A stretch of 64,000 nt of DNA. Origin: an uncultured Acidobacteriaceae bacterium (GTDB lineage Bacteria; Acidobacteriota; Terriglobia; Terriglobales; Acidobacteriaceae). A program made the translations under genes and the position numbers. The stretch spans positions 445,129-509,128 of the forward strand of contig CAVYPY010000003.1 in the NCBI GenBank assembly GCA_963770525.1, given 5' to 3'. The notes under the pieces are model-generated. The model was not told where the DNA came from and did not search any database. It worked only from the letters and a program-made list of their open reading frames with translations. Below, piece after piece: positions 8,501 to 47,052 of this stretch (the stretch's first letter is position 1; every line of letters starts with the position of its first letter).

Positions 8501-9414
8501 TTCTCACCGCCATCCAGGAAGCGGCTGACAATCGGGCCGTAGGCGTCGATGCGGCGATCGCGCAGAAACGGCCAGTTTCGGCGCGTGTCTTCCATCGCCT
8601 GCAAATCGATCTCGCCAATCAGGATTTCCTCCCGATCGTGCGCGGCTTTCGCAATCACGCGCCCAAAGGAATCGGCCAGGAACGACCCTCCCCAGAACTC
8701 CAGCCCCGGCCCTTCAACGCGATTGCCGCGCACATCGCCGTGCTCCATACCCACGCGGTTGACCGCCGCCACGTAGACGCCGTTGGCGATGGCATGCGCG
8801 CGCTGGATTGTCTGCCACGCCTCATACTGCGCCGTGCCGAACTCCTCCTTCTCGCGCGGATGCCACCCGATCGCGGTCGGATAAAACAATACGTTCGCGC
8901 CCTGCAGAGCAGTAATGCGCGCGCCCTCCGGATACCACTGATCCCAGCAGACGAGGGTGCCAATCCGTCCCGCCGAAGTGTCGAAGGCGCGAAATCCCAG
9001 ATCGCCAGGCGTGAAATAAAACTTCTCGTAATAGAGCGGATCATCCGGGATGTGCATTTTGCGGTAGAGCCCCGCCACCCGGCCATCTTTTTCGAGGACC
9101 GCGGCGGTGTTGTGATAAAGCCCCGGCGCGCGCCGCTCGAACAGCGATGCCACCACCACTACTTTCTCCTCGCGCGCGACCGCTCCCAGCCGCTCGGTGC
9201 TCGGCCCGGGAATGGGTTCGGCCAGATCGAAGAGGGCGATATCCTCCCGCTGGCAGAAATACTGAGCGCGGAAAAGCTCGGGCAGGCAGATCACCTCTGC
9301 GCCCTCGCGCGCCGCTTCGCGCACGCGATCCGCAGCCTTGTCCAGATTAGCGTCAGGATCCGGCCCGCAGCTCATCTGCACCAGTCCAACGCGAAAATTG
9401 CTGTCGTTTACCAT
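8497..9414 (-). CDS. aguB: N-carbamoylputrescine amidase (CN-hydrolase)
   Basis: Motifs: VGLVQM..., CLPELF, YRKMHIP, LVCWDQWYPE. The ATG at 9414 (MVNDSNFRVGLVQM) is the likely start. Confidence 0.9.
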   Translation of the reverse strand: MVNDSNFRVGLVQMSCGPDPDANLDKAADRVREAAREGAEVICLPELFRAQYFCQREDIALFDLAEPIPGPSTERLGAVAREEKVVVVASLFERRAPGLYHNTAAVLEKDGRVAGLYRKMHIPDDPLYYEKFYFTPGDLGFRAFDTSAGRIGTLVCWDQWYPEGARITALQGANVLFYPTAIGWHPREKEEFGTAQYEAWQTIQRAHAIANGVYVAAVNRVGMEHGDVRGNRVEGPGLEFWGGSFLADSFGRVIAKAAHDREEILIGEIDLQAMEDTRRNWPFLRDRRIDAYGPIVSRFLDGGEK

Positions 9415-9504
9415 ATTTGTGCTGATTCCAGTTACATAAATTACAAAAACAAGCAAAAGGCGCAGGCCATTGTGGCCCACGCCCACGTTCAGACCACTTC
9501 CGGC

Positions 9505-10062
9505 CTATTCGAAAATCAGAATCGCCGCCGCGATCGTTGTCGTCCAAAGCCCGCGCTTGTCGCCAATCGCCGACTGAGTCACGTTCGCGGTGCGCACGAT
9601 CTTGTTGGAGATGCGGTAAATCTCCTTTTTTTCGTCCCAGCTCGTGTCAGGATCGAACTCCACGTCCAGCGTGGTGGCCAGCATCTCTGCGGCCAGCTCT
9701 TCGGCGTATTCTCCTGCCTGTTCTTCGGTCTCGCCGAAGCTGTGGTGCTCGCTTAAGTAACCGTAGGTGTTACGATCACTGGGAATCGCCACCCCGATGC
9801 TGGATGCCACCAGCCGATGCGGCTCTCGTGTGGAGTTCTCGGCCACCACCGCGAAGACCACTTCGCCCGGGCTCAGATACTTCAGCCCTTCTTTGCGGGG
9901 AACCAGCTTTGCCTGGGGCGGGAAAATGGACGAGACGCGCACCAGATTCTGCGCCGCAATGCCGGCATCCCGCAGCGCCAGCTCAAACGAAGTCAGCCGT
10001 TCCTTATGTTTTCCCACGCCCTTCGTAAAGAACAGCCGTCGCGGGACCATGCTTTTTCCCAA
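9505..10062 (-). CDS. pdaD: Pyruvoyl-dependent arginine decarboxylase
   Basis: [31 protein letters not shown]...VSSIFPP is typical of the PdaD family. The start may be the ATG at 10050. Confidence 0.85.
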
Positions 10063-40070: not shown

Positions 40071-40370
40071 TGTATCAGGGCATGGGTCTTGTATCAGGTC
40101 ATGGGTCTTGTATCAGGGCATGGGACTTGTATCAGGTCATGGGTCCTGTATCAGGGCATGGGTCTTGTATCAGGCATGGGTCCTGTATCAGGGCATGGGA
40201 CTTGTATCAGGTCATGGGTCCTGTATCAGGTCATGGGTCTTGTATCAGGCATGGGTCCTGTATCAGGGCATGGGTCCTGTATCAGGGCATGGGACTTGTA
40301 TCAGGGCATGGGACTTGTATCAGGTCATGGGTCTTGTATCAGGCATGGGTCTTGTATCAGGCATGGCTCT
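40071..40370. repeat. Tandem array of 16 units of 18-19 bp, TGTATCAGG(G/T/-)CATGG(G/C)(T/A)C(T/C)
   Basis: Units counted by hand start at 40071, 40090, 40109, 40128, 40147, 40166, 40184, 40203, 40222, 40241, 40259, 40278, 40297, 40316, 40335 and 40353. Twelve are 19 bp and four are 18 bp. Confidence 0.95.
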
Positions 40371-40439
40371 TGTATCAGGGCACGACTTCAGTCGTGCCGA
40401 ATAAGTGCGCCGACAGGTACCTTCCTTGCTGCCGCAGGC
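40370..40439. repeat. Right arm of the inverted repeat (REP-like hairpin GGCACGAC-TTCA-GTCGTGCC plus the outer 19-mer)
   Basis: See the left arm. The spacer segments between the inner and outer blocks (18 and 19 nt) are unrelated. Confidence 0.85.
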
Positions 40440-40517: not shown

Positions 40518-41060
40518 CTAGCGGCTGTTTTCCCCGTGCCAGTCGATGTGGACGCCGCGGGCGGAGATGGTGATGGAGGGCGGGCGCTGGCGGGTGAGGA
40601 GATGGATGGTCTGGAATCCGCCGGTGAGGGCGAGGAGGGCTCCGCTGCCGACGAGGAGGCCGAGTTTGGAGGTGGGGTCGGGGTCGAGGACGGCGGCGAT
40701 GATGAGGCCGGCGCCGAAAACCGTCATCCCCGCCGAAACGGAGACGGCGGTCCACTCGCGGCGGGAGAGGCGGCCGGAGAGGCCCATCTGCAGGAGCGAG
40801 TGGCGGGCGGGGTCGATGCCAGCGCCAGCGTCGTCGATGAGGTCGACCTGGGCGTGGTGGCGGTAGGCCTCGGTGAGGCGGGCGAGCCAGTCTTTTTCGG
40901 AGGTTCGGATGGTTAGGGGCGGGGCCGGGCTGGATTGCAAGTCGGGCTTCGACTCGTGGCGGGGGGGCAGGACGATCTCGGTTGGCCCGGTGGAGCGATA
41001 GGCCTTCATCGCATTCAGGCCGGCCTGAAAGGCCTGGCGGATCCTAGCCATGTGAAACAC
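40518..41060 (-). CDS. Hypothetical membrane protein (soluble N-terminal half, two C-terminal TM helices)
   Basis: 180-aa ORF. Either the GTG at 41060 or the ATG at 41051 could be the start. It overlaps the XRE gene's stop by 17 or 8 nt. TM segments: VSAGMTVFGAGLIIAAVL and LGLLVGSGALLALTGGF. Confidence 0.55.
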   Translation of the reverse strand: MFHMARIRQAFQAGLNAMKAYRSTGPTEIVLPPRHESKPDLQSSPAPPLTIRTSEKDWLARLTEAYRHHAQVDLIDDAGAGIDPARHSLLQMGLSGRLSRREWTAVSVSAGMTVFGAGLIIAAVLDPDPTSKLGLLVGSGALLALTGGFQTIHLLTRQRPPSITISARGVHIDWHGENSR

Positions 41061-41367
41061 GCTCCAGCCGCTGCAGGGTATCAGGGTAATGACGCACCAG
41101 CAGGATCAGCGCTGCGGCCTGGGGATTGGGTTTGGAACGGCCCTGTTCCCATTTTTCGAGTGTGCGCTCGTTAATGCGCAGGCGGCGAGCAAAGACGGCA
41201 CGGGAGCAGCGCAGCCTGGCACGCGTGTCGCGAATGAAGGCCGAATCCAGTTCGGGGAGCGGCGCGGGATCGAAGCGATACGAGCGCAGCGTGATTTTCC
41301 CCTCGCGATGTGCCTTCATCGCCTCGACGCCTTCCATGAGTTCGTTGAAGAGACTGCGCTTCGCCAT
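41044..41367 (-). CDS. XRE-family HTH protein, antitoxin-like (COG2944/HigA2-like architecture)
   Basis: 107 aa. C-terminal HTH reads SRAVFARRLRINERTLEKWEQGRSKPNPQAAALI. GGAGG lies upstream of the ATG. Confidence 0.75.
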   Translation of the reverse strand: MAKRSLFNELMEGVEAMKAHREGKITLRSYRFDPAPLPELDSAFIRDTRARLRCSRAVFARRLRINERTLEKWEQGRSKPNPQAAALILLVRHYPDTLQRLERVSHG

Positions 41368-41520
41368 AACTACCTCCTCGGCGGACGTCGTGCGACCCGC
41401 ATTGCTGTCTCCATGTCGACCGCTGCTTTCAGTGCGCTTTTTTGTGCAGGGCTCAGATCGTCCATTTCGCTCTTCCCTTACAGCGTCATCAGCCAGATTT
41501 GCCGATTCAGGAGGATTGCT

Positions 41521-42300
41521 TCATTCGCTGCTTATCACAACACGTTCCTTCCGCGACCATTCCTTATAGGTGCTATTGCAGTAAGGATGAGTAAGCACCG
41601 CGTTGTCCTCCGAGCCAAGGCCTCCATGCCTTTTGTCAACGACATGGTCCAGGTTCATGGAATTCTTGTGTAGGCGTGCTCTACATATTCCGCACCGCAT
41701 CGCCGTCTTTAGAGCTTGAGTCAAAAACACTGCCGACTTTCTCTCGGTAGTAAAGTCCGGATTCGTCCCCTTGTCGAAGTCGATGATCGGCTTTAGAAAT
41801 CCCATTGTCTCTTCTTCGACCAGTTTCGGGATGATTTCTTCCTCGTTCTTGCCTTGCCGGATTCCATCAAAAACGTGCCTGAAGAGACGGGAGACGCCAG
41901 TCAGGCTCCTTTGCCCCGCACCGAGTTTCCTGACAATTTGATTGATGAGGTACTTATGCCTGACAAGCAGTTCCTCAAAATCGTGCCGAAACTGCGTAAA
42001 AACGTTTAGTTCGTCAGACCTCTCAAGGTCCAAGGCGAGGCGAACGGCAGCTAGAAATGCGGTTGGTTGATAGTTACCTGTTGCGCTGTAGAAGTAGACC
42101 GCAGGATGCAGCCCCAGAGACTGCGGCTTTATTCCCGCGATTCTGGAGGACGCGTTGCGGACGTTTTCGAGAAACTGAATTGTCTTTGACCCATCGGTGT
42201 CCTCTTGCATTGTGGGCGCAAGAATGTCAGTCTTTCCCCTGCGCCTTTTCACAGCTGGGCCTGCCGTGGGAATGGGATTCACAAATTCGACAAAATCTAG
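41521..42300 (-). pseudogene. C-terminal fragment (HNH nuclease part) of an IS-disrupted ParB/DGQHR-fold + HNH gene
   Basis: HNH motif CGICRARLHKNSMNLDHVVDKRHGGLGSEDNAVLTHPYCN. Its frame continues in phase with the N-terminal fragment once the IS and one CTAG copy are removed. Confidence 0.8.
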
Positions 42301-43200
42301 AGGCTGTTATTAAGTTTGAGTAAGCATTTTGAAGAGGGTGGCGAGCATGAGGCAGGCGCAGGCGAGAAAGTGGAAGGCACCGAGAGTGGTAGCCAGGCGT
42401 TCGTAATCGCGGGCCAGGCGGCGGAAGCGGGCAGCCCAGGCAAAGCTTCTCTCCACCACCCAGCGGCGCGGCAGCAGAACAAAGCCTCGTTTGGCCTGAG
42501 TATGTTTCACCACTTCCAGGGCGATTCCGTGCTGTTCGGCGGCCTCGGCCGCAGCTTCGCCGGTATAGCCCTGATCCACGTAGGCGAGTTCGACGTGCTC
42601 ACCGGTGATCTGCTGCACCTGCCGGGACAGCTCGCCGACCTGGGCGCGATCCTGTTCGTTGGCCGGAGTCACATGCAGGGCCAGCAGATGCCCCAGCGTA
42701 TCCACAGCGGCGTGTACTTTGGAGCCTTTGCGCCGTTTGGCTCCGTCATAGCCGGCTCGCGCACCCGATTCCGGTGTCGACTGCAGCGTGCGGCTGTCGA
42801 GAATCATCGCTGTGGGCTGCGCTTTGCGCCCGGCAAACTCGCGCAGCAGCATGCGCAGGTCTTCCACCATCGTCTCGAAGCAACGGGCGCGGATCCAGCG
42901 CTGCACCTGCTGATACACGACCTCCCACGGCGGCAGATCGTTGGGCAGATAACGCCACTGGCAGCCGGTCCGCACCACATAGCGCAATCCGTTGAAGACG
43001 TCGCGGAGCGGGTACTCGCGCTGCTCGGCGTCCTCCCGGCAGAGGGCCAGGTAGGGCGCCACCATCGCCCACTCCTCATCCGTCACATCGCTCGGATACC
43101 CCTGTCGCTCACGCCGTCCCACAACCCCAGGATGCACGACAGAAAGCCAAATCGCTCATCTGTTTCAAAACACAGGAACAAACTTAATAACAGCCTCTAG
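42297..43200 (-). mobile_element. IS5-family insertion sequence (904 bp including both CTAG ends)
   Basis: Perfect 22-bp terminal inverted repeats: CTAGAGGCTGTTATTAAGTTTG (42297-42318) and CAAACTTAATAACAGCCTCTAG (43179-43200). CTAG at both ends can be read as a 4-bp target duplication. There is a single transposase ORF inside. Confidence 0.9.
42310..43137 (-). CDS. IS5-family DDE transposase
   Basis: 275 aa. The stretch [16 protein letters not shown]...[31 protein letters not shown] (DUF4096-type N-terminus) is followed by a DDE_Tnp_1-like region ([10 protein letters not shown]...YVDQGYTG...[10 protein letters not shown]). Confidence 0.9.
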
Positions 43201-44049
43201 AATGAGTTTCATCGTCTCTGCCGAATAGCCGCGGCCAGCTACGGGCAAATCGAGCGTCTTTATCGGGGTTTCTAACGGAGGCACAAAGAGGTCTGCGTAG
43301 ACATCCTTCGCCAACAACTTGATTTGACCGTTCGTTAGATCGGAGAAAGATGGCGGGGAGTATCGTCCGGTTCCAGCCCCAACGAGTGCGCGTGTCGCTA
43401 TTGCATTGGCACTCTTCCGGTCTCTAATTAAGCGCACTTCCAAGTCGCCAATCGGGGTTTGCTCAGTATTGATCGTGTGGAATGATCTCTCCGCGCGTGA
43501 CGCATCGCCGCGAACCCACTGCAACGTGATTCCGCCAGCCGCCAGATTGCTCGCGAATCGAGCACGTTCCGGGGTCAAATTGGCACCATGCTTGATGTCG
43601 TTATATGACCCGATTTTCGTTGCGACTAGCTTTCGCGCCTCAAGCGCGGCGGCTTTCTGTTCCGGGGGTATCGAACCTTCAAAAAATCCCAGCGAAATTC
43701 CGCCGTCTCCATAGTCATCGTGCACCCACGCAACCAGCGCACTGAGGCGATGTGCTCCATCAATTACGAATATTCCGCTTGCATCGGATTGCCAAAGAAT
43801 CAGGGCGGGGATGAGGTCGCCAGATACGAAACTCTCGATGAAGCCTGCTACCTTCGTCGGGGACCAATGCGCCGTCGTCCTCTGAAAATCAGGCTTTCTG
43901 AGCCACCTGAACATGAGACTCGTAGGCTCAATCTCTATGATTTTCATTCGATCCGCTTCATCCAGTGGATGTGACTTCTGCGGGTCAATGTTTACGGTGA
44001 AATCCTCTCTGCGGATCAGCGCGTCGAGGTTGACCATGTGCGTGGGCAC
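43197..44049 (-). pseudogene. N-terminal fragment (ParB/sulfiredoxin-fold, DGQHR-type domain) of the IS-disrupted nuclease gene
   Basis: Sequence: LRKPDFQRTTAHWSPTKVAGFIESFVSGDLIPALILWQSDASGIFVIDGAHRLSAL. The track ORF extends to 43165, but its last 10 residues (EAVIKFVPVF) are encoded by the IS end. Confidence 0.8.
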
Positions 44050-44143: not shown

Positions 44144-45302
<1,159 letters not shown>

Positions 45303-45322: not shown

Positions 45323-45381
45323 GCGGGCAGCGGGTGAAGCGGGCAGCGGGTGAAGCGGGCAGCGGGTGAAGCGGGCAGCGG
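45323..45381. repeat. 16-bp tandem repeat GCGGGCAGCGGGTGAA x3.7 between lnt and prfB
   Basis: There are three perfect units (45323-45338, 45339-45354, 45355-45370) and a partial fourth. Confidence 0.95.
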
Positions 45382-45398
45382 AAGAACTGTCAGCGAGG

Positions 45399-47052
45399 CT
45401 ATCGGCTACCGGCTGGGCGACGCATGAATCCGGCGGCGAGAGCCGCGAGGACAATGGCGCCGCAAAGATACGCGAACAGGTCGCCGTGGCGGGTATAGAA
45501 GGTGAGGTCCGTGCGGTATCCGAAGCGGGCAACGAGCGAGGTCAGCGTATGGCGTGGGACGGAGAGGGTGACGCGTCCGCGGGGGTCGATGACGGTGGTG
45601 ACGCCGGAGTTGGTGTCGAGCAGGAGCCAGCGGTGGTTTTCGATGGCGCGCATGCGAGTCATGTTGAGGTGCTGCCAGGGGGCGGAGGTGTCGCCGTACC
45701 AGCCGTCGTCGGAGATGTTGACGAGGACCTGGGCGCCGTTGAGGGCGAAGTGGCGGATCTCGTCGGCGAAGACGGATTCGTAGCAGATGAAGAGGCCGAA
45801 GGTGTGGCCGTCGGCGTGGAAGACGGTGCGCCGGGTGCCGCGCTGGAGGTCTTCGAGCTGGTGGGTGAGCTTGGGGGCGAAGAAGAAGAGCTGACGGTAC
45901 GGGATGTATTCGCCGAAGGGGACGAGGTGGATTTTGTCGTAGCGTCCCTGGACGGAGCCGTCGGAATTGACGAAGACGCCGGAATTGTAGAAGCCCTGGG
46001 AGTCGTGGCCGAGCATGCCGACGATGAGGGGGGCATGGGCGGCGGTGGCGAGGGTCTGCCATGGCGTCGAGGGTGCGGGGCTGGTCGCTCTGGAACCAGG
46101 AGGCGGTTTCAGGCCAGAGGATGATGCCGGGGGGCGGGGTGTTTTGCGCGCATTCGGCGGGCGCAGCAGGCGGATGCGCGAGGGTGGGCAGGCCGTCGAA
46201 GGCGGGAGTGCAGGTGCGCGCATCCTGCTGGAGGATCCAGGAGAGCTGGCCGTTCCACTGGAGGCCGGGCCAGGTGGTGGCGTCTTCGGCGGCGACGTTG
46301 ATGTTGGGCTGCAGGAGGACGGCGTAATCGGAGGTAGGTGAGGGTGGGCCCTCAACGAAGGAGCCGGGCTGGAGGATGGCGACGAGGAGGACGCCTGAGA
46401 CGGCGAGGACGAGGCGCGGACGGGCGGTGGCCAAGAGGGCTCCGGTGAAGAGGGCGTTGACGCCGACCAGGACAAAGGAGAGGCCGTAGACGCCGGTCCA
46501 GGGAGCAAGGTGGGTGAGGAAGAGGTTGTCGACCTGAGCGTAGCCGAGCTGGTCCCAGGGGACGGAGGTGATGCGGGCGGCGGCGAGTTCGAGAGCGGTC
46601 CAGAGAAACGGGGCGAGGACCAGGGCGGAGATCAGGCCGAGGCGGCGGCGGATGAGAGCGAGGAGGAGTCCGAAGAGGCCGAAGTAGAGGCCGAGGATGG
46701 CGCTGAAGGCGACGACCATGAATGCGCCGCCAATGGCGGGGAGATGGCCGTAGAGGACCATCGTCTGGTAGATCCAGTAGCAATTGAGGATGTACCACAG
46801 GAGTCCGGAGAGCCAGCCGATGAAGGCGGCGCGGCGGAGGTCGTGGGGATGGGCGGCCTGGGCGGGGGCGAGCAGCGCCCAGAGCAGAGGGACGAGGGCG
46901 AACCAGGCGAGGATGCCGCGCCAGGGCGGGAGGGGTCCGGCGACCGGGAAACAGAAGTCGAGGAGGACCGAGGAGACGAAGGCGAGCAGGATGGGAAGGC
47001 GGAGCGAAGCACGCACAGGACGCGCGGAGACGGGCGGAGAGGCGGCTACCAC
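45399..47052 (-). pseudogene. lnt: Apolipoprotein N-acyltransferase with an interrupted reading frame (1-nt frameshift near 46056)
   Basis: The N-terminal membrane domain is in the frame of ORF 45406..47052, up to ...ILWPETASWFQSDQPRTLDAMA. The CN-hydrolase domain is in the frame of ORF 45399..46508, from TLATAAHAPLIVGM onward, with motifs HLVPFGEYIP, FICYESVF and ISDDGWYG. Omitting one base (G at 46056) joins them. Confidence 0.8.

Follow-up and report, generated by a model that had tools for sequence, protein, structure and literature searches.

An IS5-family element splits a solitary DUF262-HNH nuclease gene in an uncultured Acidobacteriaceae bacterium

We examined a 64,000-nt stretch of DNA from an uncultured Acidobacteriaceae bacterium (contig CAVYPY010000003.1 of assembly GCA_963770525.1, positions 445,129 to 509,128 of the forward strand), referred to throughout as the window, in which a minus-strand gene is split by an IS5-family insertion sequence (IS). 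Removing the element restores a gene for a 542-amino-acid (aa) protein with a DUF262 domain near its N-terminus and an HNH nuclease domain at its C-terminus, and the same gene was found without the insertion in a near-identical genome. We think it probable that this is a solitary, horizontally acquired nuclease gene, likely encoding a nucleoside triphosphate (NTP)-regulated, Type IV-like enzyme, and that the IS5-family element has recently inactivated it. The features of the locus are listed in Table 1.

Table 1. Coordinates of the interrupted gene and the element within it.
Feature	Position in window	Strand	Remarks
IS5-family insertion sequence	42297..43200	-	904 bp counting both CTAG copies; net gain 900 bp
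IS transposase, single intact open reading frame, 275 aa, DUF4096 + DDE_Tnp_1	42310..43137	-	Same orientation as the disrupted gene
CTAG target tetranucleotide	43197..43200, second copy 42297-42300		One copy in the empty site, two here (one per IS end)
Disrupted gene, 5' part (aa 1-283 and first base of codon 284)	43201..44049	-	DUF262/GmrSD_N domain (aa 51-204); helical middle begins
IS-encoded tail of the truncated reading frame (..L-EAVIKFVPVF-stop)	43165..43200	-	Within right inverted repeat
Disrupted gene, 3' part (aa 285-542)	41521..42296	-	Remaining helical middle and zinc-finger HNH nuclease

The insertion and its empty site

An IS with perfect 22-bp terminal inverted repeats (42297-42318 and 43179-43200) and CTAG at both ends had been recognized in the initial annotation, and this description holds. 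The window contains the terminal 22-mer CTAGAGGCTGTTATTAAGTTTG at exactly two places, the first of these positions (plus strand) and the second (minus strand), and no occurrence would be expected by chance (100 shuffles). The assignment to the IS5 family is likewise confirmed, as the transposase scores 213.7 bits against the NCBIfam model NF033580 (transpos_IS5_3; cutoff 110), matches PF01609 (DDE_Tnp_1, 7e-28) and PF13340 (DUF4096, 1e-23), and is ~70% identical to entries named 'IS5 family transposase' on many plasmids. Like other short (~0.9 kb) IS5-family elements, it combines a DDE_Tnp_1 transposase carrying an N-terminal DUF4096 with terminal inverted repeats and has inserted into a TA-centred palindrome (here CTAG) with 2-4 bp duplicated; there is no essential difference from these elements, the transposase here being encoded by one open reading frame (ORF) and not by two frameshifted ORFs. 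Going by the sequence of the two ends, the target-site duplication could be either TA or CTAG, since the palindromic target fits 2 bp as well as 4 bp. The candidate ISfinder subgroups are IS427, IS1031 or ISL2-like, among which the sequence does not resolve. The element has a GC content of 0.62-0.65. It is the only copy in the window, whereas near-identical copies (98.8-100%) were found at other loci in other Acidobacteriaceae metagenome-assembled genomes (MAGs) together with relatives at 88-90%, often at contig ends.

When 900 bp are deleted and one CTAG is kept, the minus-strand ORFs 43165..44049 and 41521..42282 join into a single ORF of 1629 nt, the junction reading ...AETMKLIL followed by DFVEFVNPIPTAGPAVKRRRGK. 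The reconstruction offered in the initial annotation is reproduced by this in full, including CTA (43200-43198) as the final genuine codon of the N-terminal fragment and the ten residues that the IS adds to it. The restored gene starts with GTG at 44049, with GGAGG 10 nt upstream, and the element sits between L284 and D285, inside the conserved segment KLIL/DFVEFVN (the slash marks the insertion). The truncated N-terminal product of 294 aa is on record as an exact match (MGA8095886.1).

The intact ortholog that had been sought in related strains exists. Contig JBAUGR010000538.1 of the near-identical MAG GCA_049679845.1 matches the window from 53217 to 43196 at 99.52% and then continues into 42301..42223 at 100% by way of a single CTAG, and this junction is the empty site. 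The contig stops 75 nt beyond the junction, and the remainder of the gene is found on JBAUGR010000571.1 of the same MAG, starting from window position 42210, with 12 nt unassembled between the two contigs. The 309-aa partial protein encoded on JBAUGR010000538.1 (P0043), which a protein search returned, is 100% identical to the reconstruction and spans the junction uninterrupted. Together the two contigs cover 1617 of the gene's 1629 nt, and in this portion the allele with the IS and the one without it have 0 nucleotide differences. The insertion is real, and the lack of differences between the two alleles shows it to be recent, as had been proposed from the perfect repeats and the in-phase junction; it is also apparently polymorphic.

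A second occupied site was found on MAG contig JBAUVD010000135.1, which carries lnt-prfB, an identical truncated 294-aa ORF and an identical IS. Past the complete IS, 178 nt of this contig (3694-3871) have no match to the window, and the downstream junction is thus not confirmed there. This stretch could be an IS-mediated rearrangement, though a chimeric assembly path through a multi-copy repeat explains it best. The path through the window is not chimeric in this way, because the IS is flanked by the two halves of one gene, in phase with each other and sharing the target CTAG. The contig is binned in GCA_049583045.1, labelled Steroidobacteraceae, and is 99.2% identical to Acidobacteriaceae DNA; it is probably a binning contaminant of that MAG.

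The gene fragments have a GC content of 0.50-0.55 against 0.60-0.70 in the flanks, in agreement with the lower GC that had been counted in a few short stretches, and their GC at third codon positions (GC3) is 0.58-0.59 against 0.70-0.89 in neighbouring genes. Across the three haplotypes (the window, the empty-site MAG and the second occupied contig) the region 41521-44049 of the gene is nucleotide-identical, unlike the adjoining prfB (44144-45140), in which ~10 sites are single-nucleotide polymorphisms between the window and the two MAGs. On these sequences, the pattern suggests that the low-GC islet is younger than the haplotypes that flank it, or that it has recombined across them.

Domains of the restored protein and its family

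In the reconstructed protein, Pfam models place GmrSD_N/DUF262 (PF03235) at aa 51-204 (36.8 bits, gathering threshold 33.2) and HNH (PF01844) at aa 486-528 (25.7 bits, cutoff 21.4). The latter is the C-terminal HNH finger already noted in the initial annotation. For the N-terminal domain, the ParB/sulfiredoxin (Srx) fold that had been proposed stands, whereas its description as DGQHR-like does not: the motif reads DGAHR, and since PF14072/TIGR03187 (the DndB-type DGQHR family) gives no match at E<=1, the protein does not belong to that family. PF07510 (DUF1524) also has no match at E<=1, and the helix-turn-helix (HTH) and C-terminal domains of ParB were not found with Pfam.

DUF262 domains share three motifs, QRxxxW, DGxQR and FxxxN (PMC12065111), and we find counterparts of each. 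Motif I is Q56-R-xxxx-W62 and motif III is F190-xxx-N194, while motif II is D97-G-A-H-R101, at an invariant position in the family, which keeps the D, G and R of DGQQR with Q-Q replaced by A-H. R101 in this motif is the counterpart of the motif arginine that DndI requires for its ATPase activity (PMC11662687). In the HNH domain, C486/C489/H521/C524 are the predicted zinc site and H502, N516 and N525 the putative H-N-N catalytic set. All family-invariant residues (K52-P-D-x-Q56, W62, D97-G-A-H-R101, N194, C486, C489, H502, N516, H521, C524 and N525) are kept in the interrupted allele.

An AlphaFold2 (AF2) model of the reconstructed protein (pLDDT 79.9, pTM 0.72) has a beta/alpha N-domain, an all-helical middle of ~280 aa (~aa 205-481) and a C-terminal beta-beta-alpha unit. 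Residues 277-290, which hold the KLILDFVEFVN consensus, form a helix in a block with pLDDT ~88, and low-confidence loops lie at 262-274 and 296-306. A Foldseek search of the whole chain against the PDB returned BrxU first, followed by ParB-CTP, Noc and KorB structures, sulfiredoxin and the Gme HNH (probability 0.99); all of these matches are weak and therefore do not establish a structural relationship outside the two end domains. A sequence search of the PDB with the family profile was also tried and set aside, as it gave only weak HNH matches (Cas9 HNH, E 0.097; Gme HNH, E 0.54) and no DUF262 structure.

The two fragments of the split gene belong to one family whose members run straight across the junction. 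A word-index protein search returned 4530 matches, of which the best 120 all have E<1e-146, are mostly 520-560 aa long and share 46-89% identity, and hundreds of homologues of 515-580 aa span the junction, the closest full-length one being 541 aa long and 90% identical. When 1.84 billion representatives were searched, matches at E<=1e-30 were found in 530 clusters (at 50% identity), mostly as one full-length alignment. In an alignment of 52 members, PF01844 HNH (CxxC...DH...N...HxxCN) was present in all 52 and PF03235 in 50 (best E 7e-16), and DUF1524 was found in none at E<=0.01. PADLOC, which the initial annotation had recommended, recognizes the DUF262 core but no system: its NsnA model matches 52 of 52 members and its PD-T4-2_A model 51 of 52, over aa 52-112 only, with no system-level match for the reconstructed protein or the members and no matches to the SspE, DndI and BrxU models. 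Members are scattered over Acidobacteriota, Planctomycetota, Verrucomicrobiota, Actinomycetota and Pseudomonadota in a patchy pattern that includes presence and absence between close relatives. Database entries for members already bear labels such as 'DUF262 domain-containing', 'HNH endonuclease family' and 'GmrSD restriction endonuclease domain-containing'. One Streptomyces protein, SCO4213, was considered as a characterised homologue and rejected, as the literature shows it to be Mrr-like.

Compared with the GmrSD-family Type IV enzymes Eco94GmrSD and BrxU, the protein shares a single-chain layout with a DUF262 ParB/Srx-like nucleotide-binding domain at the N-terminus and a His-Me-finger nuclease at the C-terminus. 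In the GmrSD family the two are typically joined by 200-400 aa of alpha-helical linker, and in our model aa 205-481 are almost solely helices. Members of both families occur singly, are mobile and turn up in defence islands (PMC4619093). The nuclease, however, is a classical Cys/His zinc-finger HNH (PF01844) where Eco94GmrSD and BrxU have DUF1524, a different family of the same superfamily fold; motif II is DGAHR and not DGQQR, and motif I is one residue longer (QRxxxxW). SspE and DndI, the phosphorothioate-sensing DUF262 + DUF1524 proteins, have a similar domain logic in which an NTPase N-domain gates a C-terminal HNH-type nickase, but their nuclease is of another Pfam family, there is no sequence-level match, and the family described here has no ssp or dnd modification genes nearby. 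The DUF262 core is also common to the sensor subunits Menshen NsnA, PD-T4-2_A and Dazbog DzbA; these have no fused nuclease and act with separate ATPase or effector genes, whereas here the nuclease is fused and there is no conserved partner.

The initial annotation had likened the architecture to Dnd-associated and GmrSD-like systems, and of this the DUF262 core of GmrSD type remains. Judged by its domain content, the protein is not a strict GmrSD (DUF262 + DUF1524) and not a DndB-type DGQHR protein, and judged by the neighbourhoods compared below it is not Dnd-associated. By its domains, we assign it to a separate, so far uncharacterised DUF262 + PF01844-HNH family within the broad DUF262/COG1479 ParB-like-nuclease class, which was noted by Makarova et al. 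in 2013 as 'often fused to HNH-type nuclease' (PMC3632139). With a DUF262 core and an HNH-type nuclease in one chain, the reconstructed protein falls within that class, in which the nuclease may also be of PD-(D/E)xK or HEPN type.

Genomic setting of the gene and its homologues

We compared 14 neighbourhoods, the window locus and 13 homologue loci. There is no conserved partner gene across them, and no dnd, ssp, pgl or brx gene or methyltransferase partner in any; the same genes are missing among the ~30 window genes scanned. The search for dnd, pgl or other modification genes called for in the initial annotation therefore came back empty in the window and near the 13 homologues. Its label of a defence-type architecture is nonetheless reasonable and is backed by the mobile-element contexts of the homologues, near which toxin-antitoxin, recombinase or IS genes are often found.

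Several of these contexts are known or apparent defence settings. In the P2-like Burkholderia phage KL3, gp44 is a full-length homologue (37% identity) beside the portal gene Q and adjoins a complete EcoRII restriction-modification (R-M)-Vsr module; the interval between gpA and gpQ, in which it lies, is a defence hotspot of P2-like phages described by Rousset et al. (PMC9122126). The same KL3 hotspot also holds two DUF3396 genes and a VRR-NUC gene (463-2709), which may be further accessory or defence cargo. The filamentous Pseudomonas Pf8 prophage pf8_ST274-AUS411 (NC_073756.1) has a homologue with 40% identity over 97% coverage at its accessory end (gp01, 8523-10061). This gene is annotated as a 'putative repressor C protein', which is probably wrong, as its sequence indicates a full-length DUF262-HNH homologue. 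On a conjugative plasmid of Burkholderia glumae, a homologue adjoins a CD-NTase/ThiF/JAB operon of the cyclic-oligonucleotide-based antiphage signalling (CBASS) type, and among metagenomic homologues, one adjoins a SIR2_2 gene and another Type_ISP_C and PDDEXK_5 genes.

The gene in the window stands alone as a low-GC islet amid housekeeping genes, its neighbours including lnt, prfB, GH127, GH3, bactofilin, ETF, MoaA and LptD. Directly downstream of the HNH gene lies a gene for a 107-aa XRE/HTH_31 protein (41044-41367, minus strand) with faint similarity to the MqsA antitoxin, and between the two is one 31-aa ORF (41370-41465). An XRE/HTH_31 gene also adjoins the HNH gene on MAG contig JBAUGR010000571.1, and from its sequence this protein may be an orphan antitoxin-like regulator. 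Further downstream, a tandem array of 16.6 copies of the 19-bp unit TGTATCAGGGCATGGGTCT (40071-40382, 90% match) occupies the intergenic region between the GH127 gene and the ORF 40518-41060 and yields long spurious repeat-peptide ORFs in several frames. On the other side, prfB (44144-~45300, minus strand) has a classical programmed +1 frameshift site, CTT TGA C at 45230-45236, preceded by CGGGAGTAT, and in the MAG annotation its product is a PCRF/RF-1 protein of 385 aa, spanning 1159 nt. Upstream of prfB (~45358-45410), a tandem repeat with a 15/16-nt unit, cgctgcccgcttcacc, differs in length between assemblies; relative to the window it is shorter by 31 nt in JBAUGR010000538.1 and by 15 nt in JBAUVD010000135.1.

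Proposed function and inactivation

In GmrSD, BrxU, SspE and DndI, NTP is bound and hydrolysed by the N-domain, and the conformational change that this brings about governs the His-Me nuclease at the C-terminus (PMC10952713; PMC11662687). By analogy with these enzymes, the intact protein would be an NTP-regulated restriction or nicking enzyme acting against foreign, probably modified, DNA, with NTP binding and hydrolysis at the DGxHR pocket causing a conformational change that gates the HNH active site. No cognate methyltransferase would be involved, and since there is no cognate modification gene, the enzyme is probably modification-dependent and thus Type IV-like. We propose that the 900-bp IS5-family element transposed into the CTAG within codons 284/285, in the middle of a conserved and confidently modelled helix, and parted the putative NTPase from the nuclease, which would almost certainly abolish function. 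A scan for promoters and terminators gave nothing above shuffle expectation and no promoter-like site reading out of the IS, and no Shine-Dalgarno or promoter-like site was found before the possible internal starts of the 3' fragment (GTG 42282 and ATG 42210). Because the break falls inside helix 277-290 and the 3' fragment has no promoter-like site or ribosome-binding site before it, the gene is most probably inactivated.

Several points weigh against this interpretation. Motif II has a His where the tested enzymes have Gln, so this pocket counts as a putative NTPase site, and the literature search found no experimentally characterised member of the DUF262 + zinc-finger-HNH family. Although BrxU is the top Foldseek match, no match to the PDB reached E<=1e-3, and when the family profile was aligned to BrxU with hhalign (using the BrxU sequence from pEFER), only motifs I-II in the DUF262 core aligned (aa 52-106, E 5e-4, probability 30%), for which reason we do not equate the middle region with the GmrSD-M/ParBDB domain. 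The examples of defence settings among the homologues are anecdotal and carry no statistical enrichment. Lastly, no catalytic residue has been lost from either fragment, and in principle both might still be produced.

It is possible that the intact protein served as the restriction arm of a phosphorothioate (Dnd/Ssp) or bacteriophage exclusion (BREX)/Pgl modification system encoded elsewhere in the genome. SspE, DndI and BrxU are DUF262-nuclease proteins that work with or inside modification systems (PMC10952713; PMC11662687; BrxU in the pEFER locus), and the portion of this genome inspected for modification genes is 64 kb. However, neither the 14 neighbourhoods nor the window genes hold such a partner, the PADLOC models for these three proteins have no matches, and the sole R-M system that adjoins a homologue, that of KL3, is an EcoRII unit complete with a nuclease of its own, and we regard this arrangement as unlikely.

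The split gene could also still work as a two-subunit enzyme in the style of GmrS and GmrD, with a DUF262 subunit and an HNH subunit. In nature, GmrSD is known in fused form as well as in the form of two proteins, GmrS and GmrD (PMC4619093), the IS falls in the linker that connects the two Pfam domains, and both fragments are free of mutations with every invariant residue in place. Yet mutation-free fragments are to be expected anyway of a very recent event, the break lies within the conserved helix and outside the low-confidence loops on either side of it, and the 3' fragment has none of the signals for its own expression described above. In addition, the shorter entries among the 150 best representatives resemble truncated or contig-end fragments and not a recurrent two-gene form, making continued function in two pieces very unlikely.

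A role outside defence, whether in housekeeping or in the maintenance of mobile elements, for instance as an HNH of the homing type or as a ParB-like accessory in partition or segregation, appears to us highly improbable. The ParB/Srx fold is used in partition as well, with ParB CTPases among the Foldseek matches and one homologue adjoining parAB, and HNH domains are known in homing endonucleases, but the protein has no ParB HTH or C-terminal domain, and the gene is not embedded in introns or inteins and is dispensable in this genome. Its patchy occurrence across phyla and between close relatives, its low GC3 and the repeated finding of homologues where phages and plasmids carry accessory or defence genes also argue against such a role. 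That the assembler wrongly threaded a multi-copy IS through this locus is scarcely credible, despite the many copies of the element at contig ends, the unmatched DNA past the IS in JBAUVD010000135.1 and the end of the empty-site contig shortly after the junction, as a chimera would join unrelated flanks, as in that contig, and not two in-phase parts of one gene around a CTAG of which the empty site has one copy, and as the upstream junction and the identical 294-aa product recur in an independent assembly.

We therefore return, as the most probable reading, to a solitary Type IV-like nuclease gene that was recently inactivated by the IS. This does not challenge existing concepts, as the knockout of an accessory nuclease gene by an IS is commonplace and the class of architecture was already known. 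It is about an even question whether the DUF262 + zinc-finger-HNH proteins constitute a distinct single-gene restriction family with its own DGxHR pocket, possibly with a new modification or nucleotide specificity, and whether the IS polymorphism reflects ongoing loss of defence. As members are present in validated defence hotspots, the family is a reasonable candidate for Type IV-like restriction enzymes, and a sizeable one that escapes current defence-system annotation. The locus itself offers a natural example of defence-gene turnover, in which a low-GC, acquired nuclease gene has been hit by a resident IS and both alleles are found in close environmental genomes.

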